Positions 10,908 through 60,529 of a DNA stretch of 64,000 nt are shown in pieces. Under the pieces are notes generated by a model, which had not been told where the DNA came from, ran no database searches, and was given only the letters and a program-made list of their open reading frames with translations. The DNA is from an uncultured bacterium (GTDB lineage: Bacteria > Abyssobacteria > SURF-5): assembly GCA_964607485.1 (NCBI GenBank), contig CAZSKP010000002.1, positions 11,907 to 75,906 on the forward strand. The letters are read 5' to 3'. Positions within the stretch are counted from its first letter, which is position 1. Every line of letters begins with the position of its first letter. Position numbers and translations under genes: made by a program.

Positions 10908-11043
10908 CGGAAAGTCATCCCCTCCGCATTGTTGTGCCTATTACAAACTACCCCGACTTTAATTATAGCACGAAAAACAATGCTGTTCAACAAAGCCGAA
11001 GAGCATGCATAAACCGCTATCCGCCGGAATTTTTCCAGTCGCG

Positions 11044-42760: not shown

Positions 42761-43468
42761 TTATTCGGCCGCTAACGCCCCTATCGCGTCGCGGTGGATG
42801 TTAATGCCGTGGATGCAGTAGCATTTGCCGCACTTGGCGCAGGCGGCGACCCCAAGGTCTCTTGCCTGCTCGCGCCTGTCAATCACGTTGAGAGGATGGA
42901 GGTGCAACTGCGCCAGCTTCACGAACACATAGGGGCCGGCGAACGGGTTCTTCTCGAAGTCATAGTTCGGGCAGGTCGAGTTGCAGGCGAGGCATTCAAC
43001 ACAGTGGAGCAGTTTCTTGTGAGTCTCCGACTCACAAATTACCTGTGGCTCCGAAAGGTTTTTCTGTTCGGGTATGTAGATCTGCAGTTCGCGAAGCGCA
43101 TTGAAAAACGCCACCCGGTCGACCACAAGGTCGCGGACGACGGGCATTCGGGCGAGCGGCGCGATTTTCATCTTGTCTTTCGCCTCGGTGAAGCATGCCA
43201 TTCTTGGCCGACCGTTCACCTCGACCGTGCAGAGCCCGCATTTGTTGAACCGGCAGCCGAACCGAAACGCCAGCGTTGAGTCGTCATTCTCGTAAATATG
43301 CATCAGCGCTTCCATCACGCTCGTGCGTTCACCGGCCGGCACGGCGTAATCAACCCACTTTGGCTCGACATCCGTCTCCGGGTTGTATCTCCTTATCGAA
43401 ATCGTCATGTTCATCGTTGCTTCTCCATGGCGGTGGATTTTCGCGTTGCCTCGCTTGTGTTTCGTCAT
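42761..43468 (-). CDS. SdhB/FrdB-like iron-sulfur subunit
   Basis: 2Fe-2S CRFNKCGLC...AC; CVECLACNSTCP; variant third cluster CAKCGKCYC; ATGA overlap with the flavoprotein gene. Confidence 0.88.
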   Translation of the reverse strand: MTKHKRGNAKIHRHGEATMNMTISIRRYNPETDVEPKWVDYAVPAGERTSVMEALMHIYENDDSTLAFRFGCRFNKCGLCTVEVNGRPRMACFTEAKDKMKIAPLARMPVVRDLVVDRVAFFNALRELQIYIPEQKNLSEPQVICESETHKKLLHCVECLACNSTCPNYDFEKNPFAGPYVFVKLAQLHLHPLNVIDRREQARDLGVAACAKCGKCYCIHGINIHRDAIGALAAE

Positions 43469-45144
43469 GAGCCCACCTCCACGCGACGAATTTCGCTCAT
43501 GCCGTCCTTCATCGTAACGACCATGTTCTCTACCGGAGACTTATCGTCGCGTTCCGGAAAATCCGAACGCACGTGCGCGCCCCGTGACTCCGCACGCTCA
43601 AGAGCCGACAACACGATCGCGTCGGCGGTGGCAAGCATATGAGACAGCTCGATTGCGTCGACAACTTCGCTATTGTGGGGTTTGGGTCCTGAAATTCTCA
43701 AGTCGGCCGCCTGTTTCTTTATGCTGCCTATTTCCTTAACCGCCTCTTCCAGACCATCCCGGTCGCGCAGCGGGCCGACCTTTTCCCACATTAACTTTTG
43801 GAGGGCTCGTTTCAAATGAACGGGGCGATGATTCCCCGATGCGCCAAAGAGCGAACGAACCTTTTCCAGAGCGTGCCGTGCCGTGGTTTCGTCCGCAATC
43901 CTGCGGTTGACGCTCTCTCTCGCGGCCGTCGTGCCCGCCCGTTTTCCGAACACGATTATCTCGGTGAGCGAGGTCGAGCCGAGCCGGTTGCCGCCCATCA
44001 CGCCGCCTTGCGCCTGTCCGCAGGCGTAAAGCCCAGGCGCGGCGCTCCGGCACCATTCATCCGTTTTCACTCCGCCCATATTGTAGTGAACCGTCGGCAG
44101 CACGTCCCACGGCTCCTGCAACTCGGCTGCTTTCTCTCCGTAAGCCCGCCGCACAATATCGAGGAAGACGCCGCCCACTCTTTTCATCAGCGCAAGCATG
44201 AATTCTCCCTCGGGCGCTTCCATGTTGGGCCTGAGGTCAAGGAGAAGCCCCCCGTGTTCGGTCGCGCCGCCGCGCCGGATTTCTTCCACTATAATCCGCG
44301 CGACCGCGGCTCGCGTCATGGGCATGATGTTCTCGAGCACAACATCTCCCTTGTTATTGAGCAATCGACCATGCGGGCCGGCCATAGCCGGTTCGCCGCA
44401 CGGAGCGCCGAGCATAGCGGGGGGATGCGTAATCGCAAACGGCAGGAATTGCACCTGCTCCATGTCCACGAGTTCCGCTCCGACGCGAAGGGCGAGCCCA
44501 AAACTGTCGCCCACTACGGCGGGCATGCAGTCAGTATGCGGATAATAGAGAGAGCCCGCTCCACCGGCGGCGATGATAGTGGCTTTTGCCAGCAAAGCTA
44601 TCGGTTCGCCCGAAATTTTCTGAACCGCCGCAGCCCCAACAACCTCACCGTCCCGAACGAGGAGTTCCGTGCAATATGTTTCCTCCAGAATCTCGACGTT
44701 TGCGCGAGCCGCCGCCGACCGCATCGCATGCCCCATCGATATGCCGACGGCCGGGCTTCCTATCGCGCGAGAACTCGTGTGTCCGCCGGGCGGAAACGAA
44801 AGCCTGTTCAAGACTCCGCCTTCGTCTCGCAAGAAGATATGGCCGAAGCCCTCGAACGTGATCGTCGCATCAAGCGCATCTCTCACGAGAGCCCGCACGA
44901 GCTTCGGGTCGTTCAGGCCTTCACCGCCCCGAATCATGTCATCCACGAACTGCTCTTCAGAGTCGCCGGTTGTCGTATCGGGCGACGTTGACATGACGCC
45001 GAGCGATATGCGCGTGTCGCCGTATCCGATCGGGTCCTTGGACACCATGACCACAGTCGCGCCCGTGCGAGCGGCTTCGACGGCGGCCGTCACGCCTGCC
45101 CCGCCGGACCCAATCACAAGCACATCTGATTTTCTTGCCTGCAT
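43465..45144 (-). CDS. SdhA/FrdA/NadB-family FAD flavoprotein (non-canonical active site)
   Basis: GSGGAG, HYNMGG, GGNRLGSTSL, ESRGAH.R.DFP; QFLP in place of QFHP. Confidence 0.9.
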   Translation of the reverse strand: MQARKSDVLVIGSGGAGVTAAVEAARTGATVVMVSKDPIGYGDTRISLGVMSTSPDTTTGDSEEQFVDDMIRGGEGLNDPKLVRALVRDALDATITFEGFGHIFLRDEGGVLNRLSFPPGGHTSSRAIGSPAVGISMGHAMRSAAARANVEILEETYCTELLVRDGEVVGAAAVQKISGEPIALLAKATIIAAGGAGSLYYPHTDCMPAVVGDSFGLALRVGAELVDMEQVQFLPFAITHPPAMLGAPCGEPAMAGPHGRLLNNKGDVVLENIMPMTRAAVARIIVEEIRRGGATEHGGLLLDLRPNMEAPEGEFMLALMKRVGGVFLDIVRRAYGEKAAELQEPWDVLPTVHYNMGGVKTDEWCRSAAPGLYACGQAQGGVMGGNRLGSTSLTEIIVFGKRAGTTAARESVNRRIADETTARHALEKVRSLFGASGNHRPVHLKRALQKLMWEKVGPLRDRDGLEEAVKEIGSIKKQAADLRISGPKPHNSEVVDAIELSHMLATADAIVLSALERAESRGAHVRSDFPERDDKSPVENMVVTMKDGMSEIRRVEVGS

Positions 45145-46373: not shown

Positions 46374-46415
46374 TTGACATTGGTACGAACATTATAATAT
46401 ACTTACCATTGTCAA
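46374..46415 (+). promoter_or_regulatory. Promoter and operator-like inverted repeat upstream of gntR
   Basis: TTGACA, 18-nt spacer, TATACT; bracketed by 12-bp IR TTGACATTGGTA / TACCATTGTCAA (1 mismatch). Confidence 0.65.
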
Positions 46416-46491: not shown

Positions 46492-47256
46492 ATGAAGCTC
46501 AAGAAAGGACCCATTCCCCTTTACTACCAACTTGAACGCGCCCTGCGCAAGCGCATTCTCTCTGAACGAAAGAACGGCGTGAAGGCTTTTCCCAATGAGC
46601 GTCAGTTGTGCGAGGAATATGGTGTCAGCCGCGCCACCGTCCGCCAGGCGCTCATGATTTTGGAGCGCGATCGCCTCCTCATCAGGAAACAGGGGCGCGG
46701 CACCTTCATTACGGAGGAGGATGGCAAAGGCGATCTCTTTGTTGCATATGGTTTCATGGATGACCTCTTTCTCTTCGGCTCAAAGACGACTCTGAAACTG
46801 CGCTCCCGGAAACTGGTGAAACCGGATGCGCAATTAATCGAAGATATGCGTTTGGATGAACATGATAACGTCTATTGTTTTGAAGGCATTCGGATCTTTC
46901 ATGAGATGCCACACAGCGGGCTGTTCCGGGCATGGCTGCCTTGGGAAATCGGGGAGAAGATAACGCTTGAGAATTTTAGCAGCCCCTTCCTGATTGGCGC
47001 CGTCGAAGATGCGGCATTGCAGCGGGTCACCAGGGCGCATCAGACAATGTCTGCTGCGGTGGCCACTTTAGAGCATGCCTCAGCCATGGGTATTGAAGTC
47101 GGTCATCCGATCCTGGTTCTCAAACGCATTTTTTTTACCGTCGCAGACAGAGCGGTCCAGGTATCCGAAACGCATTTACCCGGAGAGGCATACCGGCCGG
47201 TGACCATTCTGGAAAGAATGACACAGCAGGATTCTTCTCGTATTCATAAAAGATAG
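46492..47256 (+). CDS. GntR (HutC/UTRA-type) regulator
   Basis: PLYYQL, PNERQLCEEYGVSRATVRQAL, QGRGTF, C-terminal UTRA-like region. Confidence 0.92.
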   Translation: MKLKKGPIPLYYQLERALRKRILSERKNGVKAFPNERQLCEEYGVSRATVRQALMILERDRLLIRKQGRGTFITEEDGKGDLFVAYGFMDDLFLFGSKTTLKLRSRKLVKPDAQLIEDMRLDEHDNVYCFEGIRIFHEMPHSGLFRAWLPWEIGEKITLENFSSPFLIGAVEDAALQRVTRAHQTMSAAVATLEHASAMGIEVGHPILVLKRIFFTVADRAVQVSETHLPGEAYRPVTILERMTQQDSSRIHKR

Positions 47257-47266
47257 GAGAGGGGCG

Positions 47267-49015
47267 ATGAAGGAGCGAAGCGAAGAAATCAAGACACAAC
47301 AGGAGAAATGGAATGAGGCATGCGTGGCGAAGGCGCTCAAGAGGTTTCCGCTTCTGAGCGAGTGTCCGAGCCGATTCTATACTCCGCTTGACATGAAGGA
47401 GGATTTTGATTTCCTCGAGAAGGTTGGCTTCCCGGGGCAGTATCCCTTCACGGCGGGAGCGTACCCGTTCGACCCGATGGCGGGGCTGTCCAAATTCGCC
47501 GCCATCGCGCCGACCGGCGCAGCCACCACACGCGCGGCCCTCTATTCCGGCTACGGGAAACCGGAGGACACGCGCGACTACTATAAGAGCCTGCTCGAAC
47601 GCGGCGGCAAGCAGGGGCCGAACCTGGCGATGGACCTGCCGACGCAATGCGGATATGATTCAGACAATCCGCTGGTGGCGGGAGAGGTAGGCAAGGTGGG
47701 CGTTTCCATCGACACGCTGCGCGACCTCGAAGTCGTCTATGAGCCGTACCAAGGCGACCTGAACCTGGACCGCATCGCCTCGAACTTCACCATCAACGCG
47801 CCGGCCATTTATCTGGTCGCAATGTACGCGGCGCTGGCTGAAAATCGAGGTGTGCCTCTTGAGAAACTTCGGGCCACACCGCAAAACGACATTCTGAAGG
47901 AGTATATCGCTCGCGGCACGTACATCTTCCCCCCGAAGCCGGCCATGCGGCTGTTTCGCGATACTCTTGTTTTTATCAACCGGCACATGCCTCGTGTGAA
48001 CATTACCAGCATGGGCGGCTATCATATCCGAGAAGCGGGCGCGACGCGCACGCAGGACCTCGCCTACAGCATGGCGAACGCCATCGCCTACCTGCAGGAA
48101 GGCGTGAACGCAGGTCTCGACGTGGACTCTTTCGCGCCACGGTTCACGTTCAACGCGTTCGGCGGCAGCATGGAGTTTCTTCATGAGATCGCCTTCCAGC
48201 GCGCCGCCCGGCGCATGTACGGGAAAATCCTGAAGGAGCAATTCGAGGCGAAGGACCAGCGCAGCATGATCATCAGGCAGCCGATCACCGCGCACATCGG
48301 TCCCTCCGACACGACCATTCAGCGACCGCTTAATAACCTCTCCCGCGCCGTCATGGGCGCCATCATGGGCGCGCTTTCCGGCGGGACGGCCGCCCCGTTC
48401 CCGCCCTACGACGAGCCGCTCGGATTGGGCTGGAGCCTCGAAGCGCAGCAGCTCATGCAGGACGCCGGCCGGATACTCATCTGTGAGGCCAGACTGCTCG
48501 ATGTCGAAGACCCGTTCGCCGGCTCATATTGTATGGAGTCGTTGACCGACGAGACCGAGAGCGAGGCATGGGATGAACTCAAGAAGGTCGAAGAGCTCGG
48601 CGGCGCCGTCGCGGCCATCGAGAAAGGATACATGCAGAAACAGATCGCCAAGAGCGCCTATGAGCGACAAAAGGCCGTCAGTTCCGGCCAGAAATTGGTC
48701 GTCGGCGTCAATTGCTTTACCGGCGAGAACGAACTCGAGGTCGAGACGACCCGTCTGGTGCCGCATCCTTATGACCCGCAGCGGCGCGAGCGCGCTGAAG
48801 AAGAACAAATCGCCGCGCTCAAGCAAGTGAAGAGTAGCCGCAATAACGATGAAGTGAAGCGACTGCTGAAGGAACTGGAAGAACAGGCCCGGCAGGAAGA
48901 TGTCAATCTGACGCCGCACCTGGTAGAATGCGCGAAGGCCTATGTGTCGATTCAGGAAGTGTGCGACGTCCTGCGCTCGGTCTTCGGCGAGTATGAGTCC
49001 GCATCGATACTGTAG
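47267..49015 (+). CDS. B12-dependent mutase, large (substrate-binding) subunit, methylmalonyl-CoA mutase family, divergent
   Basis: GFPGQYPFT, DLPTQCGYDSD, GEVGKVGV, QNDILKEYIARGTY, GYHIREAG, DPFAGSY, VVGVN; no B12-binding domain. Confidence 0.9.
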   Translation: MKERSEEIKTQQEKWNEACVAKALKRFPLLSECPSRFYTPLDMKEDFDFLEKVGFPGQYPFTAGAYPFDPMAGLSKFAAIAPTGAATTRAALYSGYGKPEDTRDYYKSLLERGGKQGPNLAMDLPTQCGYDSDNPLVAGEVGKVGVSIDTLRDLEVVYEPYQGDLNLDRIASNFTINAPAIYLVAMYAALAENRGVPLEKLRATPQNDILKEYIARGTYIFPPKPAMRLFRDTLVFINRHMPRVNITSMGGYHIREAGATRTQDLAYSMANAIAYLQEGVNAGLDVDSFAPRFTFNAFGGSMEFLHEIAFQRAARRMYGKILKEQFEAKDQRSMIIRQPITAHIGPSDTTIQRPLNNLSRAVMGAIMGALSGGTAAPFPPYDEPLGLGWSLEAQQLMQDAGRILICEARLLDVEDPFAGSYCMESLTDETESEAWDELKKVEELGGAVAAIEKGYMQKQIAKSAYERQKAVSSGQKLVVGVNCFTGENELEVETTRLVPHPYDPQRRERAEEEQIAALKQVKSSRNNDEVKRLLKELEEQARQEDVNLTPHLVECAKAYVSIQEVCDVLRSVFGEYESASIL

Positions 49016-49044
49016 GATAAGTCCGAAGGAAATTCATTCCAATC

Positions 49045-50829
49045 ATGAAAGATGATCCCCTGCGGTTTTCGCTCAATGACGCAACGAGCAATCAGGCGTG
49101 CAGTCTGAACGAGCTGTTGGGTCAGCATCTGAGGGAATTGCTTGACCTGCTTGTTCCAATGGCAGGGGGCCGGGAACTAAGTGTTGACGGCTATAAGCTT
49201 CTGCATGAGCGGCAGAACCTTCATTCTCTTGATCAGGGTGACAGGGGAAGAAGCGAGTCACCCATCGACCCGCTGGAATTGTATGAACCACGAGTCGGCT
49301 ACATCCGCCGCATTTTGGAATCGCTTCTGAATATTGTGGAACTGGAATCGGACGGGAATCCCCTGAAGGTGGACAGCTTCCGCCTGAAACACCCGCAGCA
49401 ATGGCTCACTCCCGGAGGCGGTGCCGACGATATTCTCGCTCACGCAGCAACTCGCTGCAACCTGCAGTGCCGCTTTTGCTACAATGCCGGAGCGCCCGCC
49501 GTCCTCTCGCCGGCGCCGGGCGACCCGGAAGCGGAGTACCGCCGGCTGAAGGCTCGTATCGAGCATTACGCGCCTCGGGGAAAATTGAATTTGTTCCCCG
49601 ATATGGGAAGCCCGCGAGAAATGCTCGCGCATCCACAGATTGCGGATATTTTGAGAGAACTGCGCGCCAGAACTACCGAGGTGTTCCGCATCCCGACCAA
49701 TGGCGCCGCCTTAACGCCCTCGATGGTCGAAGCGCTCGCCGGAGTCCAGCCCGTGTATCTCGACGTGTCGCTGAACTCCTCCTCGCCCGAGCGTCGAAGA
49801 TGGCTGATGAACGACCATGCTCCCGAGGTCGCCATCGGCTCCCTCGCGCTCCTGCGCGCCGCAAGAATTCCATTCTCGGTGGTGATTGTGCCCTGGCCGT
49901 TCCCCTCGCACCGTGAGATGCTCAACGACCTCAAAGCCACCGCGATGTTCTCGGCAGCCTTCGACCCGACCCTCATCCAGCTCAGCCTGCCTGGTTGCAC
50001 ACGCGCGCTGGAGTGGGACTCTGCATTCGCGCTGGATGAAGTGTGGGATGAATTGAAGACGACCGCGCGCGAGCTGCGCAGGCAGCTTGACTGCCCGCTG
50101 GTTATTCGCCCGGGGCTCTACGAGGATTTCGACGACCCCGTAACGGTCAACGAACCGCTTGCGCATGGCGTGATGAAGAATTCTCCCGCAGCCAGAGCGG
50201 GTGTCCGCCCGGGCGACCGCATCATAAGGGTCAACGGTCTCGGCGTAAGCAAGCGACAACAGGCGCGGGCGCTTTTGACAACCGTCCACCAGAGCGACCT
50301 AAAAGAGGCTGTCATCTCGGTCGAGCGTGCCGGGACGGCTCTTGATTTGGCGGTCGGGCTGCGCGATTACGATTATCCCTACACGCCACAGACGGCGACA
50401 CACCTCGGCATTGTGTTCGCGTCGTCGGGTATTCCCCAAGAATGGATGGACAAGCTGAAGGACGTCATCGTCTCGCACGGCGCGAAGAACCCGCTGCTGC
50501 TGACCTCTCGGCTGGTGTATCCGACCATCGAGAGGCTCGTCGCGCGGAACGGGTTTGCCGATGTGAAGCTGCATATCCGGGTTCCTCGAAACGACTTTTT
50601 CGGGGGAAACATCTTCATGGGCGACCTGATGGTTGTCGAGGATTTCATTCGAGCGGTCGAGGAGTTCATAGAAACGGAGGGCATTCGGCCCGACCTGATC
50701 GTCATTCCCTCATCGCCGTTCCATCTGAGCAGGTGGGGAAGAGACCTGACGGGTCGGGTGTATCTGGATATCGAGCGCGCTCTGAAGATTCCGGTTGGCC
50801 TGGTCGAATGCGAGCCGATTTTCGATTGA
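49045..50829 (+). CDS. Radical SAM protein with PDZ and DUF512-like C-terminus
   Basis: CNLQCRFC (CxxxCxxC), PTNG, PDZ (NSPAARAGVRPGDRIIRVNG), NDFFGGNI..GDL..VED, GRDLTG. Confidence 0.85.
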   Translation: MKDDPLRFSLNDATSNQACSLNELLGQHLRELLDLLVPMAGGRELSVDGYKLLHERQNLHSLDQGDRGRSESPIDPLELYEPRVGYIRRILESLLNIVELESDGNPLKVDSFRLKHPQQWLTPGGGADDILAHAATRCNLQCRFCYNAGAPAVLSPAPGDPEAEYRRLKARIEHYAPRGKLNLFPDMGSPREMLAHPQIADILRELRARTTEVFRIPTNGAALTPSMVEALAGVQPVYLDVSLNSSSPERRRWLMNDHAPEVAIGSLALLRAARIPFSVVIVPWPFPSHREMLNDLKATAMFSAAFDPTLIQLSLPGCTRALEWDSAFALDEVWDELKTTARELRRQLDCPLVIRPGLYEDFDDPVTVNEPLAHGVMKNSPAARAGVRPGDRIIRVNGLGVSKRQQARALLTTVHQSDLKEAVISVERAGTALDLAVGLRDYDYPYTPQTATHLGIVFASSGIPQEWMDKLKDVIVSHGAKNPLLLTSRLVYPTIERLVARNGFADVKLHIRVPRNDFFGGNIFMGDLMVVEDFIRAVEEFIETEGIRPDLIVIPSSPFHLSRWGRDLTGRVYLDIERALKIPVGLVECEPIFD

Positions 50830-50841
50830 AGGAGAGGATGA

Positions 50842-51243
50842 ATGGAGAATAAGATCAGAGTTCTCATATCCAAGATTGGACTGGACGGGCACGACCGCGG
50901 GTCGAAAGTGGTCGCTTACGGACTGCGCGACGAGGGGTTCGAGGTAATCTATCTGGGCATCCGGCAGACGCCCGAAAAAATCGTAAGCACCGCGCTTCAG
51001 GAGGATGTCAAAGTCATCGGCCTGTCCATTCTTTCGGGCGCGCACATCCCGCTGACCCGGCGCGTCATGGACAAGCTCAAGGAAGAAGGCGTCGAGGACG
51101 TCACGGTGCTGGTCGGCGGAGTCATTCCCGAGGCCGACATTCCCGCGCTCAAGGAAATGGGTGTCGCCGAAGTCTTTACCTCGGGAACGGACATCGGCGA
51201 GATCGCCGGCGTCATCAGGCAGCGCGCGGGCTCGAACGCCTGA
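50842..51243 (+). CDS. Cobalamin-binding small subunit of the mutase
   Basis: GLDGHDRG (DxHxxG), GLSILSGAH, VGGVIP, GVAEVF. Confidence 0.95.
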   Translation: MENKIRVLISKIGLDGHDRGSKVVAYGLRDEGFEVIYLGIRQTPEKIVSTALQEDVKVIGLSILSGAHIPLTRRVMDKLKEEGVEDVTVLVGGVIPEADIPALKEMGVAEVFTSGTDIGEIAGVIRQRAGSNA

Positions 51244-51426
51244 AATGGGGGCGGCAAAATACCCCAACTGATTTATCTCTTCCCTACCTGGACAGATTTC
51301 TTCTTTTGATGACTTTTTGATGGAGATATGTTATAGAGTGGAGTATCGATTGAATCACGAAAAAGAGGCCGCTCTTCTTCACGGGTGCAAAGCATTGCCG
51401 GAGGGCGAGCTAAGGGAGGAAACGCG

Positions 51427-53022
51427 ATGAAACTGGAAGTGCTGAGTCCGATCGGAGAAGTAACGGCGGAAAAGCAGGCGTTGGCGAGCCGCGAAAAGAA
51501 TCTGGCGGGAAAGACTATCGTATTCTTTGGCAACGCCAAGCCCAACTTGAATATCCTGTTTGACAACCTGGAGAAAATGTTCGCCGCGAAATTCCCTGAG
51601 ACCAGGACTATCAGGAAAGGGAAGGAGAATGCGGCGTTCGCCGCCCCAGAAGAATATTTGAATGAGGCGGCCGATGAGGCAGACATGGTCATCTGCGGCG
51701 TCGGCGATTGAGGGTCATGCACGTCGTGGAGTATCCACGACTCTGTCGCGTTCGAGAAGAGGGGCGTTCCTACCATTACCTTGGTGACCGACCAGTTTCG
51801 TCCTCTGGCGGACGCGGAAAGCAAAGCTCTCGGAATGCCGCAGATTCCCCTGGCGGTCATGCCGCACCCGCTCGGCGGCCGAACGGAATCGGACGTTGCG
51901 ATTCTGGCGGAAAAAGCCTTCAACGATATTGTCGAGCATCTGAGCCGCAGTGGAGGGCAGATTTCAGGCGCCGTCGTTTCTGATTCGCCGCAGCAGTTCG
52001 TCATCGAAGGCGACTTCGACGCACTGCAGGACCTCTTCTACGAAAAGGGCTGGAGCGACGGCCTGCCGGTGATGCCGCCCACCGCCGAAAAAGTGAAAGC
52101 AATGCTTTCCGGCGCCGGTAGAGATCCCAAAGAAGTCCTGGGCTTGTTCCCTCCCGCGTATGCCGAGGCAACCGTTCAAAAAATAGCCGTGAACGCCGTC
52201 ATGGCCGGGTGCCTGCCGTCGTATTTCCCGGTCGTACTGGCCGGGGTGGAGGCGATGCTTGAGGAACAGTTCAATCTTTATGGGATTCAGGCGACGACGC
52301 ATCCGTGCGGCGCGCTTGTTATAGTAAATGGTCCGCTGGCACGTGAATTGAACATCAACTCGAAGGGCAACTGCCTCGGGCAGGGCCGGCGCGCCAACGC
52401 CGCCATCGGACGCGCCGTCAGACTGGCGATGCAAAATATTGGCGGCGGGATTCCGGGAGAGATGGACAAGGCGACGATGGGGCATCCGGGAAAGTACAGT
52501 TACTGCATGGCGGAAAACGAAGACGAGAGCCCGTGGGAGCCGCTGCACGTCGAGCGCGGATTCGACAGGTCCGTCAGCACCGTCACCGTGGCGGCGGCGG
52601 AAACGCCGCATAACATCAACGACCATGGCAGCACAACGGCGGAGGCCGTGCTGACCACCATTAGCGGAGCGGTCGGCAGCGCCGGCAACAATAACCTTTA
52701 TAAGGTTGGCGACCTGTTTGTCGTACTCGGACCGGAACATGCCGCCACCATCGCCGGCGGCGGGTATTCCAAAAAGGACGTGCAGGAATATATCTTTGAA
52801 CACGCGCGGGTTCCGATCGGCAAGATGTCGGAGGAGCAGTTGCGCCACATGCAGGCGGGAAGAGATGATTTTGTGGAACCTGACGGGACTTTGCGGATGG
52901 CCCAGATGGCCGGCGCCATCAACGTTGTCGTGGCCGGAGGACCCGGAAAACATTCGATGTGGATTCCCACGTTCGGGGTCACCTATTCAGTGACGCGGGC
53001 TATCCGTCCCAAGGAGGCATGA
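51427..53022 (+). CDS. Selenoprotein: UGSC-family domain fused to a DGLPVxPPT-type domain (Sec at 51709-51711), 531 aa
   Basis: AGGGAGGA RBS; the 51385 and 51781 ORFs are in the same frame, separated only by TGA in ...CGVGD-U-GSCTSWSIHD...EKRGVPT; SECIS-like hairpin 11 nt downstream. Confidence 0.88.
51723..51741 (+). promoter_or_regulatory. Bacterial SECIS-like hairpin
   Basis: GTCGTGGA-GTA-TCCACGAC, perfect 8-bp stem with G in the apical loop, starting 11 nt after the UGA. Confidence 0.75.
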
Positions 53023-53363
53023 AGGTGACCGAACCGAACGCAGAGGCGATGGCGCAGGTACGAAAGATGGCGGAAGAACACGCCCGCCAGGCCGGATACG
53101 TCCTGAATCCGATTGATTCCATAAGGGAGGCGACTCTGGCGGGATTGGCGCGCAATCTCGAACTATATGGACGCCCATTCTGTTCATGCCAGGTGATATC
53201 GGACGATACCCTCAGGGTCCGCGAGAAAGCCGACGAGGCGTCGTGTCCCTGCGCGGCTCATCGCGCCCAAATCGAGGAGAAAGGCTCCTGCCACTGCGGA
53301 TTATTCATGACGCAAGAGGCGGCGGAAAAAATGTTGAAGGCCCGAAGAGCATTCGGAGCATGA
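53019..53363 (+). CDS. Ferredoxin:thioredoxin reductase catalytic subunit-like protein
   Basis: GLARN..YG..FCSC, CPC, CHCGLF; ATGA overlap with the selenoprotein stop; AAGGAGG RBS. Confidence 0.85.
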   Translation: MKVTEPNAEAMAQVRKMAEEHARQAGYVLNPIDSIREATLAGLARNLELYGRPFCSCQVISDDTLRVREKADEASCPCAAHRAQIEEKGSCHCGLFMTQEAAEKMLKARRAFGA

Positions 53364-53406
53364 GGGTTGAAGCCCGTGGCTCCAAGGCTGCCGGGAGGAG
53401 AAGGAC

Positions 53407-54273
53407 ATGACAGGTGATAACCTGCTTGAGGGCGGGATTGACCTGCATACTCACAGCGGCCCAAGCCTGTATGACCGGGCACTTGACGATTTCGGTCTGG
53501 CGGCTGAGGCGAAAGTAGCCGGGATGCGCGCCGTGGTGCTCAAGGCTCACGAGTGCCCGACCGCCGGCCGGGCAGCCCTTGTCAATGCCAACATGGAAGG
53601 CGTTCTTGCCTGCGGGGGAATTGTTCTCAACCATTTCATCGGCGGGTTCAATCCGGTTGCAGTGGATGCGGCTCTGAAGATGGGCGGAAAAATCGTCTGG
53701 TTCCCGACGTTCCATGCGCAGAATCATCTTGCCCATTATGGCGCCGAGAGTATCACCCCCACCTCACATCAGATGGAGGCGCCGCCGACCGGCCTGAGCG
53801 TCTTAGACGAGAGCGGCCGGTTGAACCCGGAAGTTGAGCCGGTTCTGCAAACAATTGCCGAGCGCAAAGCTATCCTGGGGACGGGACATCTTTCAGCCCG
53901 TGAAATTCTCGTTCTCACTGATGCCGCTCTGGCCGCGGGGGTCGAGAAGATTCTCATAACCCATGCCGACATGTTTTTTGTCGGCCTGACTCTGGAAGAA
54001 CAAGTGAGCTTGGCGAGGAAAGGCGCGATTCTGGAGAAGTGCTACCTCGCCATGCTGCTCTCTCAGGACGGTGGCGCGAAAACCATGGCCGAGAGCATCA
54101 AAGCGATTGGAGCGAAGAGCTGCGTGCTGGTGACCGATCTCGGCCAGTCGGTTTTTCCGCATCCCGTGGCGGGAATGCTATCATTTATCGAAGCATTGAT
54201 GGCGGAAGGCATCAGCCGGCAGGAAATCAAAACGGTGCTGGCCGAAAATCCCGCTCGCCTGCTGGAGTTGTAG
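53407..54273 (+). CDS. Amidohydrolase/PHP-like metalloprotein (DUF6282-like)
   Basis: IDLHTHSGP, LKAH, VWFPT, GTGHLS, ITH, TDLGQ, NPARLL. Confidence 0.8.
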   Translation: MTGDNLLEGGIDLHTHSGPSLYDRALDDFGLAAEAKVAGMRAVVLKAHECPTAGRAALVNANMEGVLACGGIVLNHFIGGFNPVAVDAALKMGGKIVWFPTFHAQNHLAHYGAESITPTSHQMEAPPTGLSVLDESGRLNPEVEPVLQTIAERKAILGTGHLSAREILVLTDAALAAGVEKILITHADMFFVGLTLEEQVSLARKGAILEKCYLAMLLSQDGGAKTMAESIKAIGAKSCVLVTDLGQSVFPHPVAGMLSFIEALMAEGISRQEIKTVLAENPARLLEL

Positions 54274-54290
54274 GCCAAATCCCGAGGAGA

Positions 54291-54430
54291 TACTACTGGG
54301 AGCATAAAATATTCGTCATTCTGAGCGCAGCGAAGAATCTCAGAGACTGCGACGGACCCTGGCCAAAGAAGAGATCCTTCACTTCGTTCAGGATGACAGA
54401 AATGTGAAGTATTTCACGCTCTGAGTAATA
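54291..54430. mobile_element. MITE-like element, homolog of 26513-26668
   Basis: Imperfect terminal IR TACTACTGGGAGCATAAAATATTC vs reverse complement TATTACTCAGAGCGTGAAATACTT; core hairpin 54315-54397. Confidence 0.6.
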
Positions 54431-54545
54431 AGAGGCATGATTATTGACGATTTCCCGCGTGAGACTGTTGAAGTTGGCAAGGCGAAGCCACAATCTGCTG
54501 AATCAGCGAACTCAGATAAATGAAGAAACGCAAAGGGAGGCGACA

Positions 54546-55703
54546 ATGGATTTCCAATTGACCGAAGAACAGAGAATTTTCAAGAAGATGGTGCACGATT
54601 TTGCAGATGAACGCCTTGCCCCGCTGGTTGAGACCTGGGAGCGAGAAGGTTTTGTCCGGGATACAAAGCTGATATCGGAATATGCGGAGCGCGGCCTGCT
54701 TGGAATCACGCTTCCCGAACAATATGGAGGCGCGGGACTGACGGCATTCGACGCCATTCTGGCCGTGGAAGAGTTGGCCCGCGTGAGCTGCGTCGCCGCC
54801 GGACCGGTATTTGAAACCAGCTTTGGCCCGATTCGCGTCGTGGAGCAGTTCGGCACGGAAGAACAGAAGGAGCGGTTCATCCCTCCCTGCTGCACGGGAG
54901 AAAAATTCATGGCTGTAGGCATGACCGAGCCCGGCGCAGGCTCGGCCCTGACCGATCTCACGACGCGGGCGGTTCTCGAAGGCGACCACTTCGTGGTGAA
55001 CGGCCGGAAACGGTTCATTTCCGGCGGAGGCCATTCGGAGCTGTATATGGTTTACGTTCGCCTGAGCGAGAAGAAAGGGCACAAGGGAATCGGCGGGCTT
55101 GTGATTGAAAAAGGCTCGCCCGGCTTCAGTTTCGGAAAGCAGGAGGAATTCATGGGGCTCCGCGGGATACCGAGCTGCGATTTGATTTTTGAAGATTGCG
55201 TCGTGCCCAAGGAGAATCTCGTCATTCCCGAGGGTGGATTCGCCAACTTGATGCAGGCCTTTGACGTCGAGCGCTGCGGGAATGCGACCCAATCGCTCGG
55301 GATCGCCTGGGGCGCGCTCGAAGCGGCCAAAAAATATTCGCAGGAGAGAACGGCATTCGGCAAGCAAATATGCGAATTTCAGGCGGTTCAGTTCCTTCTG
55401 GCGGACATGGCAATGAAGGTCGAGGCGGCGAGATTGCTGATCTACCGCGCGGCGGTGAATGCCGGTATGGGCCTGCCGTCGATATTCGAATCGTCCGTCG
55501 CCAAGTGTTTCGCCAATGAAATGGCCAAGGAGGTCACCGATATGGCCCTTCAGGTCTTTGGCGGGTACGGCTACTCGAAGGAATACCCGATTGAGCGCAT
55601 GCTGCGCGACAGCCGCGGCTGGCCGGTCGCAGGCGGCACCGTGCAAATGCAGCGGATAAACATCGCTGGCGCCATGCTGGGGAGGCGATTCAGTCAGAGA
55701 TAG
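54546..55703 (+). CDS. Acyl-CoA dehydrogenase
   Basis: MDFQLTEEQ, MTEPGAGS, NGRKRFISG, ERTAFGK, QVFGGYGY; GGT motif preceded by Ala instead of Glu. Confidence 0.95.
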   Translation: MDFQLTEEQRIFKKMVHDFADERLAPLVETWEREGFVRDTKLISEYAERGLLGITLPEQYGGAGLTAFDAILAVEELARVSCVAAGPVFETSFGPIRVVEQFGTEEQKERFIPPCCTGEKFMAVGMTEPGAGSALTDLTTRAVLEGDHFVVNGRKRFISGGGHSELYMVYVRLSEKKGHKGIGGLVIEKGSPGFSFGKQEEFMGLRGIPSCDLIFEDCVVPKENLVIPEGGFANLMQAFDVERCGNATQSLGIAWGALEAAKKYSQERTAFGKQICEFQAVQFLLADMAMKVEAARLLIYRAAVNAGMGLPSIFESSVAKCFANEMAKEVTDMALQVFGGYGYSKEYPIERMLRDSRGWPVAGGTVQMQRINIAGAMLGRRFSQR

Positions 55704-55813: not shown

Positions 55814-56623
55814 CTACTTCGGAGACATTTCAATCGATTTGCCCTGCCCCAGCGTGCCGTTCACGAGCGCTCGTGCCAAATGTGCGGCGGCCTTGGTGGG
55901 TTCGTCGGCCTCGATAAGACGACAATGACGCTCTCGTGACGGCGATTCCAAGCGCATGCACGTTATGAGCGGGTCCGGAATCGGGTCCATGGCCAGGTCA
56001 CTCAGCCGCAGATTTTCCATGGGTCTTTCCTTGGCTTTCTTTATGTCTCTCAGTTTCGGCGTCCGCAGTTCGCCCGCCTCATGGCTGACCGTTACCAGAG
56101 CGGGCATGGAACCTCGCAGCACCTCGTGACCGTCAGAGAGGACACGCTCCACAACGAGTCGATCGCCGTCAATTTCGATTCTTCGCGCCCACGATACGGC
56201 TGGGATATCCAACTGCTCGGCGATTGCCAGCCCCACACCGCCTGAGTTGGAATCAGCAGCCTGCCGACCAGCCAAAATGAGGTCGAAGCTCATGTTCGAG
56301 ATTGCGGAAGCGAGAATGGCGGCCGTCACGTGAGAGTCCGTCTCGGCTTTCCCCTCGATCATGCGGAGCGTATCAGCGCCTACGGCAAGCGCCTTCATGA
56401 GAATGGGTCGGGCGAGCTTCGGTCCAAGGCTCAATACTGAAACGTGGGTGTCCGCTCGCGCATCTTTTATTTTCAGAGCCAATTCGAGTGCGCTCTCGTC
56501 ATACGGACTTATTACGGGAGGCACACCCTCGGCGACGATTTTTCTGTTTTCAGAGTCGAGCTTGAAACATCTGGCCGGAGCCTCGGGATCGATCACCTGC
56601 TTCATGCACACGATGATTCTCAT
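55814..56623 (-). CDS. etfB: Electron transfer flavoprotein beta subunit
   Basis: IVCMKQV, PYDESALE, ALAVGAD, GRQAADS; start 56623 or 56635. Confidence 0.93.
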   Translation of the reverse strand: MRIIVCMKQVIDPEAPARCFKLDSENRKIVAEGVPPVISPYDESALELALKIKDARADTHVSVLSLGPKLARPILMKALAVGADTLRMIEGKAETDSHVTAAILASAISNMSFDLILAGRQAADSNSGGVGLAIAEQLDIPAVSWARRIEIDGDRLVVERVLSDGHEVLRGSMPALVTVSHEAGELRTPKLRDIKKAKERPMENLRLSDLAMDPIPDPLITCMRLESPSRERHCRLIEADEPTKAAAHLARALVNGTLGQGKSIEMSPK

Positions 56624-56638
56624 TCCCCCGCCCATCGC

Positions 56639-57625
56639 TCAGCTCCCTCCTGTTTTCAGTCTATTGACTGCGTCGATGAGCGGTGGCAGGATCGAGCGGT
56701 AGTCGCCGACAATACCATAATCAGCCATCCGAAAGATGTCTGCCTCGGCATTGTTGTTGATGGCGACTACGACCTTCGAACCGCCCATTCCGGATAGATG
56801 CTGGCTCGCTCCGGAGATACCTACGGCAATGTACACCTCGGGGCTGACGGATTTTCCTGTTATGCCAATTTGGCTGGAAGAAGGGACCCATCCTGAATCG
56901 CAAGCAGGTCGGCTTGCCCCCACAGCAGCGCCCAGCGCGCTCGCGAGCTTCCGAAGCATATCAAATCCCTCCGGACCGCCGATTCCGCGTCCTCCGCTGA
57001 TCACAACTTCGGCATCTTCCAGCTTGGTCTCGGAGGATTCTTCCACTACGTGATCCATGACCTCCCATTCCCGACCGGTCTCAAAGGGGATGTCAACCTT
57101 GATACTTGTTGCCGAGAGAGATTCATCGCGAGCCGGCATGCTCTCCACTCCGCGCCTGACTGTGACGACAGCAGGCCTGGTGTTGAATGAATACGTTGCG
57201 AGCGCGACTCCGCCCTGAACGGGTTTGGTCGCGACGAGGTCTTGCCGGTCGACACTTATCGCAATGCAATCGGTGACAAGCCCTCCTCGCACCCGTTCGG
57301 CGAGCCGCGGAGCAATATCCTGGCCCAGGGGAGTATGAGCAAAGATAATGGCGGCGGGGTCGTACCGATTACATGCTGTCTCGACGAATGCGACATGCCA
57401 TTCGGGACAATATCTCCGGCCTGCGGGCGGCGTCGCCGTGTAAATATGGCTTACTCCATACGCTCCCACTTCGTTCGCCATCTCATCGGTGGCGAGAGCG
57501 CTGAGTTCAGAACCCATGGCCTGCGCCACTCTCTTCCCGAGGCCTAACATCTCCACGGATGCGGCTATGATTTCCCCTGTGGGTCCGGGTTCACAAAATA
57601 CCAGCACAGAGCCTGTCTGACTCAT
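56639..57625 (-). CDS. etfA: Electron transfer flavoprotein alpha subunit
   Basis: SGGRG, GASRPA, QIGITG, GISGASQH, AIN, ADYGIVGD. Confidence 0.95.
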   Translation of the reverse strand: MSQTGSVLVFCEPGPTGEIIAASVEMLGLGKRVAQAMGSELSALATDEMANEVGAYGVSHIYTATPPAGRRYCPEWHVAFVETACNRYDPAAIIFAHTPLGQDIAPRLAERVRGGLVTDCIAISVDRQDLVATKPVQGGVALATYSFNTRPAVVTVRRGVESMPARDESLSATSIKVDIPFETGREWEVMDHVVEESSETKLEDAEVVISGGRGIGGPEGFDMLRKLASALGAAVGASRPACDSGWVPSSSQIGITGKSVSPEVYIAVGISGASQHLSGMGGSKVVVAINNNAEADIFRMADYGIVGDYRSILPPLIDAVNRLKTGGS

Positions 57626-59254: not shown

Positions 59255-60529
59255 CTATAGTGCCCGTTCGACAAGCTCGACAATGTCATATACGTCGATC
59301 GTCGCGCCGGCCTTGGCTCTGGCGTCGATGAAGTTCCGCTTGCACCACGGACAAGCGCTGACGAGCGCTTTTGCTCCGACAGTTGTCGCCTCCTCAAGCC
59401 GTTTGGCCGCGGTCCACTCTGCAAAGTCCGGATACGCTTCCTTCACGCCGCCGCCGGCGCCGCAGCACCACGCGTATTCCCTGATACGGCTCATCTCGAC
59501 GAGGTTCAAGCCGGGAATACTCCGCAGGATGTTCCTTGGCGCTTCATAGACGCCGTTTGCCCCGCATCGTTTTTTCTTCGGCGGATCATGCACGACCATC
59601 TGCCCATTGACCTTGACGTTCTTACCCTCCCAATGTACCCAGGGCTCAGCCAATCTGCCCAAGTGGCAGGGATCGTGATACGTCACGGTCAACGGAACCC
59701 GCGTGGTCAGCTTCATCTTCCCTTCCTCTATCAGCCGAGCTATGAACTCCGTGATGTGCAATATTTCCACTGTACGCTTCTGGCCGGTCTTGTCGTAAAG
59801 GACTTTGAACGCCTGATAGCAGTCGGCGCAGGGAGTGACGACTGTCTTCACTCCGGCCACCTTCCAGGTGCCAGTGTTATGCTCGGCGTACTTCATCAGA
59901 TCGCCCGCGTAGCCCATTTCATAGCTTCGCCCGCCGCAGCAGGTTTCTTCTTTGCCCATGATGCCGACATCGACGCCGGCGTCCGCAAGAAGGGTCAGCC
60001 CGCTCCTCGCTGCCGGCCACAACTCCGTGTCAAACGAATATCTGCAACCGGCATGATACAAGACGTCGGCTTTCTCCTTTGTCAGGTTCTTGACCGCAAG
60101 TCCTTCGGCCCAGTTTCCCCTGTCCTCTTTCGACTCCTGCATCATGTTGTCCTCTTGCTTGAGGCCCTCAATGACCAGAGCGTGCTCGGGAATGACCTGG
60201 CCTTCCTCGATACACCTGAATCTGATCTCTTGCATGACTTCATAGGGCTCGAGGTCCCTTTCGACCTTGCACGACACATCGCACCCGCCGCACATCTGGC
60301 ACTGGTAGATCATGTTCAGAAACGTATCCCCGATGGACGTTCGTTCTTTGAGGAGCGACAGGCCCGCGATCTGTCGTCCACCGGCCGACCAGCCATGGAA
60401 GTTGTATCGTTCAATGCTTGGACATACCGTCAGGAAGCGCGAGTCGGACATGACCTGATGCGGCACCCACTTGCAGTATGAACATCGCGTGCATCGCATG
60501 ATGTCGTTTTCATAATTCTCTAGAGGCAT
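59255..60529 (-). CDS. Fe-S oxidoreductase with CCG domains (GlcF/HdrD-like)
   Basis: CTRCSYC...CP, CQMCGGCDVSC, ETCCGG, YHDPCHLGR, WCCGAGGG, ACPWC. Confidence 0.9.
   Translation of the reverse strand: MPLENYENDIMRCTRCSYCKWVPHQVMSDSRFLTVCPSIERYNFHGWSAGGRQIAGLSLLKERTSIGDTFLNMIYQCQMCGGCDVSCKVERDLEPYEVMQEIRFRCIEEGQVIPEHALVIEGLKQEDNMMQESKEDRGNWAEGLAVKNLTKEKADVLYHAGCRYSFDTELWPAARSGLTLLADAGVDVGIMGKEETCCGGRSYEMGYAGDLMKYAEHNTGTWKVAGVKTVVTPCADCYQAFKVLYDKTGQKRTVEILHITEFIARLIEEGKMKLTTRVPLTVTYHDPCHLGRLAEPWVHWEGKNVKVNGQMVVHDPPKKKRCGANGVYEAPRNILRSIPGLNLVEMSRIREYAWCCGAGGGVKEAYPDFAEWTAAKRLEEATTVGAKALVSACPWCKRNFIDARAKAGATIDVYDIVELVERAL

Follow-up and report, generated by a model that had tools for sequence, protein, structure and literature searches.

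The 64,000-nucleotide stretch of DNA analyzed here (the window) carries eight co-oriented plus-strand genes at positions 46492-55703, and Pfam and NCBIfam profile searches assigned each to a family, confirming by position and profile match the genes named in the original prediction. We divide the array into two modules. Module A (46492-51243) comprises a GntR/HutC-type regulator with a UTRA domain (46492-47256; PF00392, 59.7 bits; PF07702, 73.3 bits), the large (substrate-binding) subunit of a split adenosylcobalamin (AdoCbl) acyl-CoA mutase (47267-49015; PF01642 MM_CoA_mutase, 450.5 bits), a radical SAM protein with an internal PDZ domain (49045-50829; Radical_SAM, 47.1 bits; PDZ_6, 37.8 bits), and the small B12-binding mutase subunit (50842-51243; PF02310, 89.2 bits; TIGR00640, 163.4 bits). 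Module B (51427-55703) comprises a 531-amino-acid UGSC/Unknown_1 fusion selenoprotein (51427-53022; UGSC, 158.4 bits), a [4Fe-4S] protein resembling the catalytic subunit of ferredoxin:thioredoxin reductase (FTR) (53019-53363; PF02943 FeThRed_B, 81.6 bits), a DUF6282 protein (53407-54273), and a butyryl-CoA-dehydrogenase-like acyl-CoA dehydrogenase (ACAD; 54546-55703; three ACAD domains in Pfam). Upstream of the GntR gene lies a sigma-70-like promoter match (TTGACA-18-TATACT, 46374-46403, plus strand) that fits 11 of 12 hexamer positions, a consensus match alone and not evidence of function. Because the gaps in the array are short and no plus-strand terminator-like site was found within them, one transcript across all eight genes is possible.

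The mutase was described in the original prediction as divergent, and its large subunit is indeed the weakest of five full-length MM_CoA_mutase matches in the genome (450 versus 541 to 759 bits). It falls far below the cutoff of the methylmalonyl-CoA mutase (MCM) equivalog model NF006944 (393 versus 876), and its best solved relative is HcmA (4r3u, 2.3e-100), followed by human MCM. Thirty-six orthologues have in common the motifs YSGYG and IARGTY and an insertion of ~20 amino acids, and a quick tree sets this clade apart from the genome's four other paralogues (branch length, 1.04; SH-aLRT, 100). In the small subunit, DGHDRG corresponds to the DxHxxG His-on motif, with D15, H17, and G20 invariant in 15 orthologues. 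These features define a distinct clade of two-subunit AdoCbl acyl-CoA mutase linked to a radical SAM gene, and not an ordinary methylmalonyl-CoA mutase. HcmAB (PDB 4R3U) likewise has a separate large subunit and a small B12-binding subunit, but HcmA has Ile/Gln where the window mutase has Tyr/Arg, and the Asp of HcmA is Ala in the window mutase. The YSGYG signature and the insertion are the clade's own relative to the HCM subclass (HcmAB, ActD/MatB); within that subclass, the available text of PMC5719088 describes the alkylmalonyl-CoA mutases ActD/MatB as split enzymes that accept long alkyl-substituted malonyl-/succinyl-CoA. The window mutase belongs to the same fold family as methylmalonyl-CoA mutase (1REQ, 2XIJ) and has its YH and QNDILKE motifs as well as its Tyr/Arg pair; unlike those enzymes, it scores below the equivalog cutoff and has no MeaB gene in its cluster. 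The absence of MeaB from the cluster had been noted in the original prediction; the genome carries one MeaB gene elsewhere, on contig C36. A Glyoxalase_4 gene is present in the window (39294-39815, minus strand), but no epimerase can be named because this gene has no NCBIfam match at 1e-10.

The radical SAM gene sits between the two mutase subunit genes. The CX3CX2C motif is invariant in the protein alignment, the DUF512 Pfam score is 21.5 bits (below the 25-bit cutoff), and the closest folds are 9cg2, Mmp10, and 9cg1. We regard the protein as a putative class-2 cobalamin-dependent radical SAM enzyme with a DUF512-like C-terminal domain. Like Mmp10 (7QBS), csDUF512 (9CG1), and pfDUF512 (9CG2), it has a CX3CX2C core followed by a C-terminal domain; it differs from them in an additional N-terminal region of ~120 amino acids, in its subthreshold DUF512 match, and in that cobalamin binding is putative. 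According to the accessible portions of PMC11659888 and PMC13331322, csDUF512 carries a PDZ domain too; in the window protein this domain is not N-terminal but internal, with the radical SAM core before it and the DUF512-like domain after it. The word "mutase" does not occur in the accessible portion of PMC11659888 on DUF512 proteins, and relative to that literature, as far as it is accessible, the tie of a DUF512-like radical SAM protein to an acyl-CoA mutase is new.

The first gene of module B contains a single in-frame TGA (51709-51711, plus strand). Because the frame passes this codon and continues to 53022, the gene encodes a fusion: a UGSC domain with the motif U95-G-S-C98 (residues 1 to 173) and a conserved C-terminal domain of ~350 amino acids (residues ~186 to 531). 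The earlier description of a UGSC selenoprotein stands as to the recoded TGA, and the fused domain adds to it. The TGA aligns with a Cys of the CxxC motif in full-length homologues (GDCGxCTSW), an identical TGA is present in the orthologues of two related genomes (G004 and G009) and in a Robertmurraya homologue, and the genome encodes SelA and tRNA-Sec; on this evidence the codon is recoded as selenocysteine. A candidate SECIS element, an 8-bp hairpin in the centroid structure (51723-51741, plus strand), begins 11 nucleotides past the TGA and is conserved in G004 and G009, although its folding energy is no better than that of shuffles (z, 0.30) and its codons are also protein constrained. The AF2 model of the fusion (pLDDT, 87.9) has a flavodoxin-like N-terminal domain. 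For the C-terminal domain, we found no Pfam match, no fold relative, and no invariant Cys across 16 sequences. The protein has the U-G-S-C motif of the UGSC-containing family, passes PF24696 and NF041046 (136.7 bits; cutoff, 125), and has the fusion partner and no structural difference relative to the UGSC/Unknown_1 protein named in 2008 (Zhang and Gladyshev, PMC2398784). The function of the family is still termed uncharacterized in the accessible part of a 2026 review (PMC13188914). What is new here for UGSC/Unknown_1 is its FTR-like, DUF6282, and ACAD partners and its acyl-CoA context.

The start codon of the FTR-like gene overlaps the UGSC stop codon (ATGA), so the predicted coupling of the two genes is real, and they adjoin in G004 and G009 also. 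None of the six Cys residues of FTR catalytic subunits is missing from the FTR-like protein, which also retains their His, its CSC...CPC...CHC aligning with the CPC...CPC...CHC of solved catalytic chains. Given these residues and the translational coupling to a Sec-x-x-Cys protein, the ferredoxin-driven selenol/thiol step proposed earlier is reasonable. The CxC...CxC...CHC spacing is that of the FTR catalytic subunit (1DJ7, 7BZK) and of the single-subunit form 4TPU; unlike in these systems, we saw neither a variable subunit nor a rubredoxin domain with the window protein, and its presumed partner is a Sec-x-x-Cys on a flavodoxin-like fold rather than thioredoxin. Assignment to the double-selenoprotein form of FTR was rejected (NF041072, 56.6; cutoff, 160).

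The next gene had been called a DUF6282-like metallohydrolase. Its DUF6282 membership is clear (PF19799, 232.2 bits), but an amidohydrolase-fold metal hydrolase is only possible, as the protein resembles dihydropyrimidinases only weakly and only at its N terminus (E, 0.06). The gap between this gene and the ACAD gene holds a dispersed repeat (54288-54421). The earlier call of a MITE stands in the sense of MITE-like: the genome contains 47 other matches to this repeat, of which many show 71 to 84% identity over 80 to 160 nucleotides and the rest are short (26 to 55 nucleotides). The ACAD scores 360 bits against the AcrC model (cutoff, 640). It is 95% identical in G004 and 90% identical in G009, compared with only 31% for the ACAD of the G005 cluster, and judged by these identities it travels with module B. 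The EtfB/EtfA genes, convergent with the array (55814-57625, minus strand), are a plausible electron acceptor for this ACAD.

We surveyed both modules in the window's family sample of 10 genomes (G000 to G009), which is also the scope for unlinked co-occurrence in one genome, and in wider sets of loci reaching at most 10 kb to each side, many on short metagenome contigs. Among the 10 family genomes, the radical SAM orthologue (E < 1e-200) is present in G000, G004, G005, and G007, and the UGSC fusion is present in G000, G004, and G009. In G004, from a sister genus, none of the eight genes is missing and their order is unchanged, with an AMP-dependent acyl-CoA ligase gene where the window has the repeat; because G004 belongs to a different genus, the junction of the modules is not a one-off accident. 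G005 has the order GntR-large subunit-radical SAM-small subunit, and behind these genes lie an acyl-CoA ligase, NMO, and an ACAD that is unrelated; G007 (large subunit-radical SAM) and G016 (radical SAM-large subunit) keep a shorter part of module A, and none of these three carries module B. G009 has the reverse, with UGSC-FTR-DUF6282-ACAD behind a ResB-like gene and no module A. Across 80 metagenome loci from the radical SAM alignment, 42 contain the large mutase subunit, 39 the small one, and 49 at least one of the two, whereas UGSC, FTR-like, and DUF6282 genes are found in none. GntR homologues lie upstream of the mutase in G004, G005, and 6 of these 80 loci. The 78 distant UGSC-fusion loci all lack the mutase as well as the radical SAM and FTR-like genes; ACAD is present in 8 of them and DUF6282 in 6, at most 2.5 kb from Unknown_1-domain genes.

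We consider it probable (roughly 0.65) that the stretch combines two modules, each conserved and separable from the other, and that both belong to anaerobic organic-acid/acyl-CoA catabolism. They look like separately inherited units placed side by side, and a single obligatory eight-gene pathway, as the original prediction had it, is unlikely: the halves are joined only in the window and G004, and 94 to 97% complete genomes (G005 and G007 versus G009) carry one half without the other. This largely agrees with what the original prediction had named as grounds for its own refutation. It is correspondingly doubtful that all eight genes serve one catabolic route, in which selenol reduction and hydrolysis would prepare a substrate for the mutase and ACAD/ETF would oxidize the product. 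The full synteny in G004, the co-orientation and short gaps, and the one upstream promoter-like site without an internal terminator-like site are consistent with such a route, but the combination is absent from all 80 and all 78 wider loci, and the ACAD goes with module B and not with module A. Both modules accompany the same families elsewhere (ECH, PrpD, CoA-transferase III, TRAP/TctC, and ACAD), which could also mean that they form two branches of the same type of pathway. Around the radical SAM gene (n = 84), neighbors include ECH (37 loci), PrpD-family (22), CoA-transferase III (18), NMO (16), carboxyltransferase (14), TRAP DctM (12), and ACAD (10); around the UGSC fusion (n = 78), they include TctC (15), CoA-transferase III (8), ECH (7), PrpD (6), and, in this tally, ACAD (5). 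Elsewhere, both halves are embedded in the same kind of cluster, a point in favor of one route: a Robertmurraya locus reads PrpR-ECH-PrpD-UGSC fusion-DctM-DUF6282, and the radical SAM/mutase pair is flanked by sets of ECH, PrpD, and TRAP genes. Literature searches returned no description of the eight-gene set, in agreement with the earlier statement that no described pathway contains it.

Within module A, the mutase could be the organism's plain methylmalonyl-CoA mutase of propionate/succinate metabolism, with incidental neighbors. It matches general mutase models and retains the carboxylate-binding Tyr and Arg, yet this reading is very improbable: the genome encodes a fused paralogue (707-amino-acid frame) with canonical YAGF and ARG motifs and a higher score (749 versus 450 bits), the mutase is ~40% identical to the genome's own MCM-like paralogue, and the distant equivalog cutoff, the clade's own signature and insertion, its long branch in the quick tree, and the tight linkage to the radical SAM gene all speak against it. 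Unlikely as well, though less so, is that the radical SAM protein is a mutase accessory factor whose PDZ domain recognizes a subunit and which modifies it posttranslationally or loads or repairs its cobalamin. In the closest radical SAM clade (at least 48% identity), a mutase subunit is present in 21 of 23 loci and adjacent in 20, with the radical SAM gene between the subunit genes; by family, both proteins would bind cobalamin, and the nearest folds include the protein-modifying Mmp10, which acts on methyl-coenzyme M reductase. However, among the 16 loci flanked by 5 kb or more on each side, a mutase is absent from 4 and adjacent in only 5, and in many loci the radical SAM gene directly follows ECH, carboxyltransferase, or NMO. 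MeaB is present in 9 of the 84 loci, and the window's genome encodes three PduO-type and one CobA-type adenosyltransferases; therefore, no cofactor-handling gap demands a new factor.

For the favored two-module arrangement, we infer the following chemical steps; what the analysis itself establishes is the families, the motifs, the recoded TGA, and the distribution and synteny of the genes. A Tyr/Arg pair in methylmalonyl-CoA mutase holds the substrate's free carboxylate. In alignments with solved MCMs, these two residues correspond to Tyr93 and the Arg of IARGTY, and the module A mutase would rearrange a substituted succinyl- or malonyl-CoA. The radical SAM protein would act on an intermediate of the pathway in a radical step that depends on cobalamin; action on the mutase itself is less likely. 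In module B, reduced ferredoxin would pass electrons to the FTR-like [4Fe-4S]/disulfide protein, which would reduce the Sec95-x-x-Cys98 center of the UGSC domain; this domain would give two electrons to the fused Unknown_1 domain, whose need for reducing equivalents we assume and where a carboxylic acid would undergo a reductive step. DUF6282 may catalyze a hydrolysis, the product would be activated by an acyl-CoA ligase (which G004 has but which the MITE-like repeat replaces in the window), and ACAD with the neighboring ETF would oxidize the resulting acyl-CoA. Glycine, betaine, and D-proline reductases use a UxxC selenoprotein that receives electrons via a thiol-disulfide relay for reductive bond cleavage in a carboxylic acid; we found no sequence or fold relation between them and module B, and the comparison is an analogy only. 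Thioredoxin-reductase-like genes occur in 4 of the 78 UGSC-fusion loci, and in one aerobic-type locus (L081) such a gene lies beside DUF6282 and Unknown_1, at the position occupied in the window by the FTR-like gene.

The original prediction placed eight co-oriented genes on the + strand at 46492-55703, and family scans found all of them. The first four, which we call module A, encode a GntR/UTRA regulator (46492-47256), the large subunit of an MM_CoA_mutase-family enzyme (47267-49015; 450.5 bits), a radical SAM protein with a PDZ domain and a below-threshold DUF512 match (49045-50829), and a B12-binding small subunit (50842-51243). The remaining four, module B, encode a UGSC protein (51427-53022), an FTR catalytic-subunit-like protein (53019-53363), a DUF6282 protein (53407-54273) and an acyl-CoA dehydrogenase (ACAD; 54546-55703) whose N-terminal, middle and C-terminal domains score 107.7, 86.8 and 142.1 bits.

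The proposal that these genes form a single pathway held only in part. All eight are present in unchanged order in a genome of one sister genus (G004), with an AMP-dependent acyl-CoA ligase gene added between those for DUF6282 and ACAD, but in the genomes and loci sampled the halves are joined nowhere beyond this genome and the window. Among 10 genomes of the same family, the UGSC fusion occurs in the window's own genome, G004 and G009 (5 of the 61 genomes searched overall), and a close radical SAM orthologue occurs in the window's genome, G004, G005 and G007. In G005, the order GntR-mutase-radical SAM-B12 subunit precedes genes for an acyl-CoA ligase, an NMO-family protein and a hydrolase, and for an ACAD that shares only 31% identity with that of the window; G005 lacks UGSC, FTR-like and DUF6282 genes. 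G007 has mutase-radical SAM, and G016, a distant lineage whose phylum is represented by only two genomes in the collection, has radical SAM-mutase. G009 carries UGSC fusion-FTR-like-DUF6282-ACAD downstream of a ResB-like gene, with an ACAD 90% identical to the window's; this genome, at 94% completeness, yielded no radical SAM orthologue.

When metagenomes were scanned with an alignment of 18 radical SAM sequences, 80 loci emerged, of which 42 contain a mutase large subunit, 39 a small subunit and 49 either one. In the radical SAM clade nearest to the window's (at least 48% identity), a mutase subunit is present in 21 of 23 loci and lies within 300 bp in 20; the more distant clade has one in 28 of 57 loci, within 300 bp in 15. 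Where at least 5 kb is available on both sides, the proportion is 12 of 16. Co-occurrence of the two halves, for which the original prediction proposed a neighbourhood search, did not appear in this wider sampling: UGSC, FTR-like and DUF6282 genes are absent from all 80 metagenome radical SAM loci, and mutase, radical SAM and FTR-like genes (the last sought to an E value of 0.01) are absent from all 78 distant UGSC-fusion loci of species genomes, 6 of which contain DUF6282 and 8 an ACAD. The original prediction was to fall if its halves never met elsewhere and were transcribed independently; since we see them joined only in the window and in a single sister genus, the result comes close to that outcome. 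The likeliest reading, to which we give a probability of about 0.65, is that two conserved modules of uncharacterised function, separable from each other, have been brought together in one lineage. Sequence scans, which are weak evidence, gave a near-consensus promoter match upstream of the GntR gene (46374-46403) and no terminator-like site on the + strand in either of the two longer gaps. The sequencing runs listed as containing the stretch are four DNA runs from one sediment study, with no RNA run among them.

The TIM-barrel of the large subunit identifies it as an AdoCbl acyl-CoA mutase (PF01642, 450.5 bits against a cut-off of 22.1; TIGR00641, 482.4 bits against 303.8). The small subunit (TIGR00640, 163.4 bits) carries the DxHxxG His-on motif as DGHDRG, and D15, H17 and G20 are invariant across 15 orthologues. 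The description of this mutase as divergent was borne out: it scores 392.9 bits with the methylmalonyl-CoA mutase equivalog NF006944, for which the cut-off is 876, and it is the weakest to the model of five full-length MM_CoA_mutase matches in the genome (450 bits versus 541-759). These five matches and one fragment lie on contigs C2, C3, C4 and C57, and the B12-mutase repertoire of the genome is large, since it also includes one MeaB and four adenosyltransferases (three PduO-type, one CobA-type). Among the mutase paralogues, one shows the canonical YAGF/ARG pattern and another shows FAGL/AQK.

In the methylmalonyl-CoA mutase (MCM) of P. shermanii, Tyr89 and Arg207 bind the substrate carboxylate, and in HcmA, Ile and Asp replace MCM residues and serve hydroxyl recognition. 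The closest solved relative of the window's large subunit is HcmA (4r3u, 2.3e-100), slightly ahead of human MCM. Y93 of its YSGYG motif and the Arg of IARGTY align with the Tyr and Arg of MCM (1req_A, 2xij_A), at positions where HcmA has Ile and Gln, and an Ala takes the place of the Asp in the STDFD of HcmA; the Ile and Asp expected of a 2-hydroxyisobutyryl-CoA mutase are both replaced. YSGYG, the Arg and an insertion of ~20 amino acids are common to 36 large subunits encoded at radical SAM loci. In a quick tree, with rows chosen by linkage and BLAST cluster and with this genome's paralogues as the only outgroups, a branch of length 1.04 (SH-aLRT 100) separates these 36 from the four paralogues. 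The split HCM-subclass mutases ActD and MatB act on long alkylmalonyl- and alkylsuccinyl-CoA (PMC5719088), and a substituted succinyl- or malonyl-CoA is therefore the candidate type of substrate for the window's mutase.

The radical SAM protein has a CX3CX2C motif (C138-N-L-Q-C142-R-F-C145) that is invariant across 18 sequences, and its core matches PF04055 at 47.1 bits. A C-terminal four-stranded Rossmann domain of the cobalamin-binding type follows the core and makes the protein a putative member of class 2 (DUF512/Mmp10). This relationship was detected by fold only: the DUF512 Pfam score is 21.5 bits (cut-off 25), and a profile search of solved sequences brought up chains of PDZ and generic radical SAM type, with no DUF512 entry among the best 60 of 78 matches. 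At least 8 of 120 listed homologues carry a precomputed PF04459 match. In 2024, DUF512 was found to bind cobalamin, and enzymes that carry it methylate cobalamin with SAM, their reactions being unknown (PMC11659888, PMC13331322 and PMC12931638). Sequences of these enzymes number about 6000 and crystal structures two, and the review PMC13331322 poses the question of which reactions they catalyse.

Genes that recur in 84 radical SAM loci encode ECH (37 loci), PrpD family proteins (22), CoA-transferase III (18), NMO (16), carboxyltransferase (14), TRAP DctM (12) and DctP (9), ACAD (10), MeaB (9), acyl-CoA ligase (8) and OAD-beta (4). Together they have the composition of a cluster for anaerobic dicarboxylate/acyl-CoA degradation. 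The wider result, beyond the frame of the original prediction, is that a radical SAM protein of putative DUF512 class is widely linked with a distinct acyl-CoA mutase clade. One putative DUF512 clade gains a fixed partner and a recurring catabolic gene set, which narrows the search for DUF512 substrates to dicarboxylyl-CoA chemistry. In mostly open-access literature, we found, among the papers listed, no description of a link between DUF512 radical SAM proteins and acyl-CoA mutases and none of an association of radical SAM and PDZ with methylmalonyl-CoA mutase, and no paper on the PrpD/mutase/radical SAM/TRAP/carboxyltransferase gene set.

The radical SAM protein may work either on a pathway intermediate or on the mutase. 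The position of its gene between those of the two subunits favours the mutase, as does its PDZ domain; a role in the pathway is favoured by the radical SAM loci that have no nearby mutase and by the presence of MeaB and ordinary adenosyltransferases. A complex prediction with radical SAM residues 120-594 and the small mutase subunit scored 0.00; run without controls, it counts neither way. We rejected the idea that the protein substitutes for MeaB or for an adenosyltransferase, since no substitute is needed: nine of the 84 loci encode MeaB, and the genome has a single MeaB gene besides the three PduO-type enzymes and the CobA-type enzyme.

In the reading of two separable modules, the second begins with the UGSC gene, in which a single TGA (51709-51711) is read through and the frame continues to 53022, giving a 531-amino-acid fusion of the UGSC domain with a C-terminal domain of ~350 amino acids, Unknown_1. 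Family models (PF24696, 158.4 bits; NF041046, 136.7 bits, cut-off 125) and the motif GVGD-U-GSC-TSW identify the protein as UGSC. The TGA lies at an identical offset in the G004 and G009 orthologues and is also present in a homologue from a cultured Robertmurraya; full-length homologues have Cys in the same column, within a GDCGxCTSW (CxxC) motif. SelA (479.9 bits) and tRNA-Sec (67.1 bits) are encoded in the genome. An 8-bp hairpin that starts 11 nt past the TGA is kept in the orthologues, but it proves little by itself because the same bases encode conserved residues, and its folding energy does not stand above shuffles (z 0.30; 118 of 200 equal or better). The TGA is a predicted selenocysteine codon.

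Both the UGSC family and its Unknown_1 fusion were described in 2008 from ocean metagenomes, where UGSC ranked with the selenoprotein families of highest abundance (PMC2398784), and a 2026 review still treats the family as functionally uncharacterised (PMC13188914). The UGSC domain is modelled as a flavodoxin-like alpha/beta fold with Sec at a helix start. The C-terminal domain is strongly conserved (QATTHP, GQGxRAN, AENE, GPEHA, GGPGKHS) and has no invariant Cys. It matches no Pfam family up to an E value of 1, with UGSC the only match in 16 family members, and no relatives of it were found by sequence, nor by fold as far as testable. A profile of the fusion compared by sequence with solved structures gave nothing credible (best E value, 0.038), and the ESM Atlas returned only the C-terminal domain's own family. 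A single-protein search of genome contigs found no relative of the fusion; an alignment-based search did. The family is very large: of 8000 candidates scored, 7157 had an E value of ≤0.001. Its members come from Pseudomonadota, Chloroflexota, Methylomirabilota, Bacillaceae, actinomycetes and one haloarchaeon. Most of the database relatives listed are ~413-430 amino acids long and start past the Sec codon, so the gene is routinely mis-called as truncated in public annotation. In a same-class relative (L011, G010:C6, about 9832-12197), a UGSC fusion with 37% identity has another UGSC gene, a stand-alone one, directly after it; the in-frame stops reported are one TGA in the former and one TGA plus one TAG in the latter.

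The start of the FTR-like gene overlaps the UGSC stop codon (ATGA), and the two genes also adjoin in G004 and G009. Its product matches PF02943 at 81.6 bits, and its CSC...CPC...CHC motifs align with 7bzk_A and 1dj7_A, with the six Cys and the His in place. DUF6282 (PF19799, 232.2 bits) is a family without known function, and no paper naming it was found in the mostly open-access literature searched. The ACAD falls below the equivalogs for AcrC (acryloyl-CoA reductase; 360.3 versus 640) and 3-sulfinopropanoyl-CoA desulfinase (354.4 versus 600). The gap between the DUF6282 and ACAD genes holds a MITE-like dispersed repeat (54288-54421) that has a short inverted motif at its ends and 47 further matches across the genome contigs; in G004, this position is taken by the acyl-CoA ligase gene.

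Neighbours in the 78 UGSC-fusion loci include TctC (15), CoA-transferase III (8), ECH (7), PrpD (6), SDR (6), ACAD (5 in this tally), amidase (4) and thioredoxin-reductase-like proteins (4). At locus L081, a thioredoxin-reductase-like gene lies directly 5' of DUF6282 and a stand-alone Unknown_1 gene. The chromosome of Robertmurraya sp. 2P01SA, a cultured Bacillaceae strain, encodes the Sec form of the fusion with an in-frame TGA (L018:9995-11608), in an operon that reads PrpR-type activator-ECH-PrpD-UGSC fusion-DctM-DUF6282-dehydrogenases-thioesterase-MaoC. Since the Sec form sits in a tidy operon of a cultured strain, genetics on UGSC is feasible, and Robertmurraya is a possible genetic model for this orphan selenoprotein.

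Electrons for module B would come from ferredoxin via the FTR-like protein in anaerobes and, elsewhere, from NAD(P)H via a thioredoxin-reductase-like protein. The UGSC domain would be the partner of the FTR-like protein, and its U/CxxC centre would relay the electrons to the fused catalytic domain; DUF6282 may act as a hydrolytic companion, and the product may pass to ACAD/ETF. A second result is a plausible electron donor and companion for UGSC: the selenoprotein gains as candidate donors the FTR-like protein in anaerobes and the thioredoxin-reductase-like protein elsewhere, together with a recurrent companion in DUF6282 and an acyl-CoA context.

A more ambitious proposal, which we think unlikely, is that the split mutase of YSGYG type works with the PDZ-DUF512 radical SAM protein as a dedicated two-enzyme core, at the centre of an anaerobic pathway for substituted dicarboxylates that is so far undescribed, and that this core is functionally joined here to a ferredoxin-to-FTR-like-to-Sec reductase system (UGSC/Unknown_1 with DUF6282). 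Such a pathway would run through TRAP uptake, CoA transfer, PrpD/ECH, a cobalamin-dependent radical step, 1,2-rearrangement and carboxyltransferase decarboxylation. If the two-enzyme core is real, it would provide the first physiological reaction of any bacterial DUF512 enzyme; if the coupling to the Sec reductase is real, it would reveal a role for an orphan selenoprotein family that ranks among the most abundant.

Three other features of the window lie on the - strand. An SdhA/SdhB-like pair (42761-45144) has the thiol:fumarate reductase models TfrA/TfrB as its best matches, below their cut-offs. A CCG-domain protein (59255-60529) matches the C-terminal half of TfrB and is accompanied by two FAD_binding_4 (GlcD-like) genes and EtfAB, with which it could form an ETF-linked dehydrogenase complex. 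An 841-amino-acid open reading frame (36063-38588) matches no Pfam family at 1e-5.
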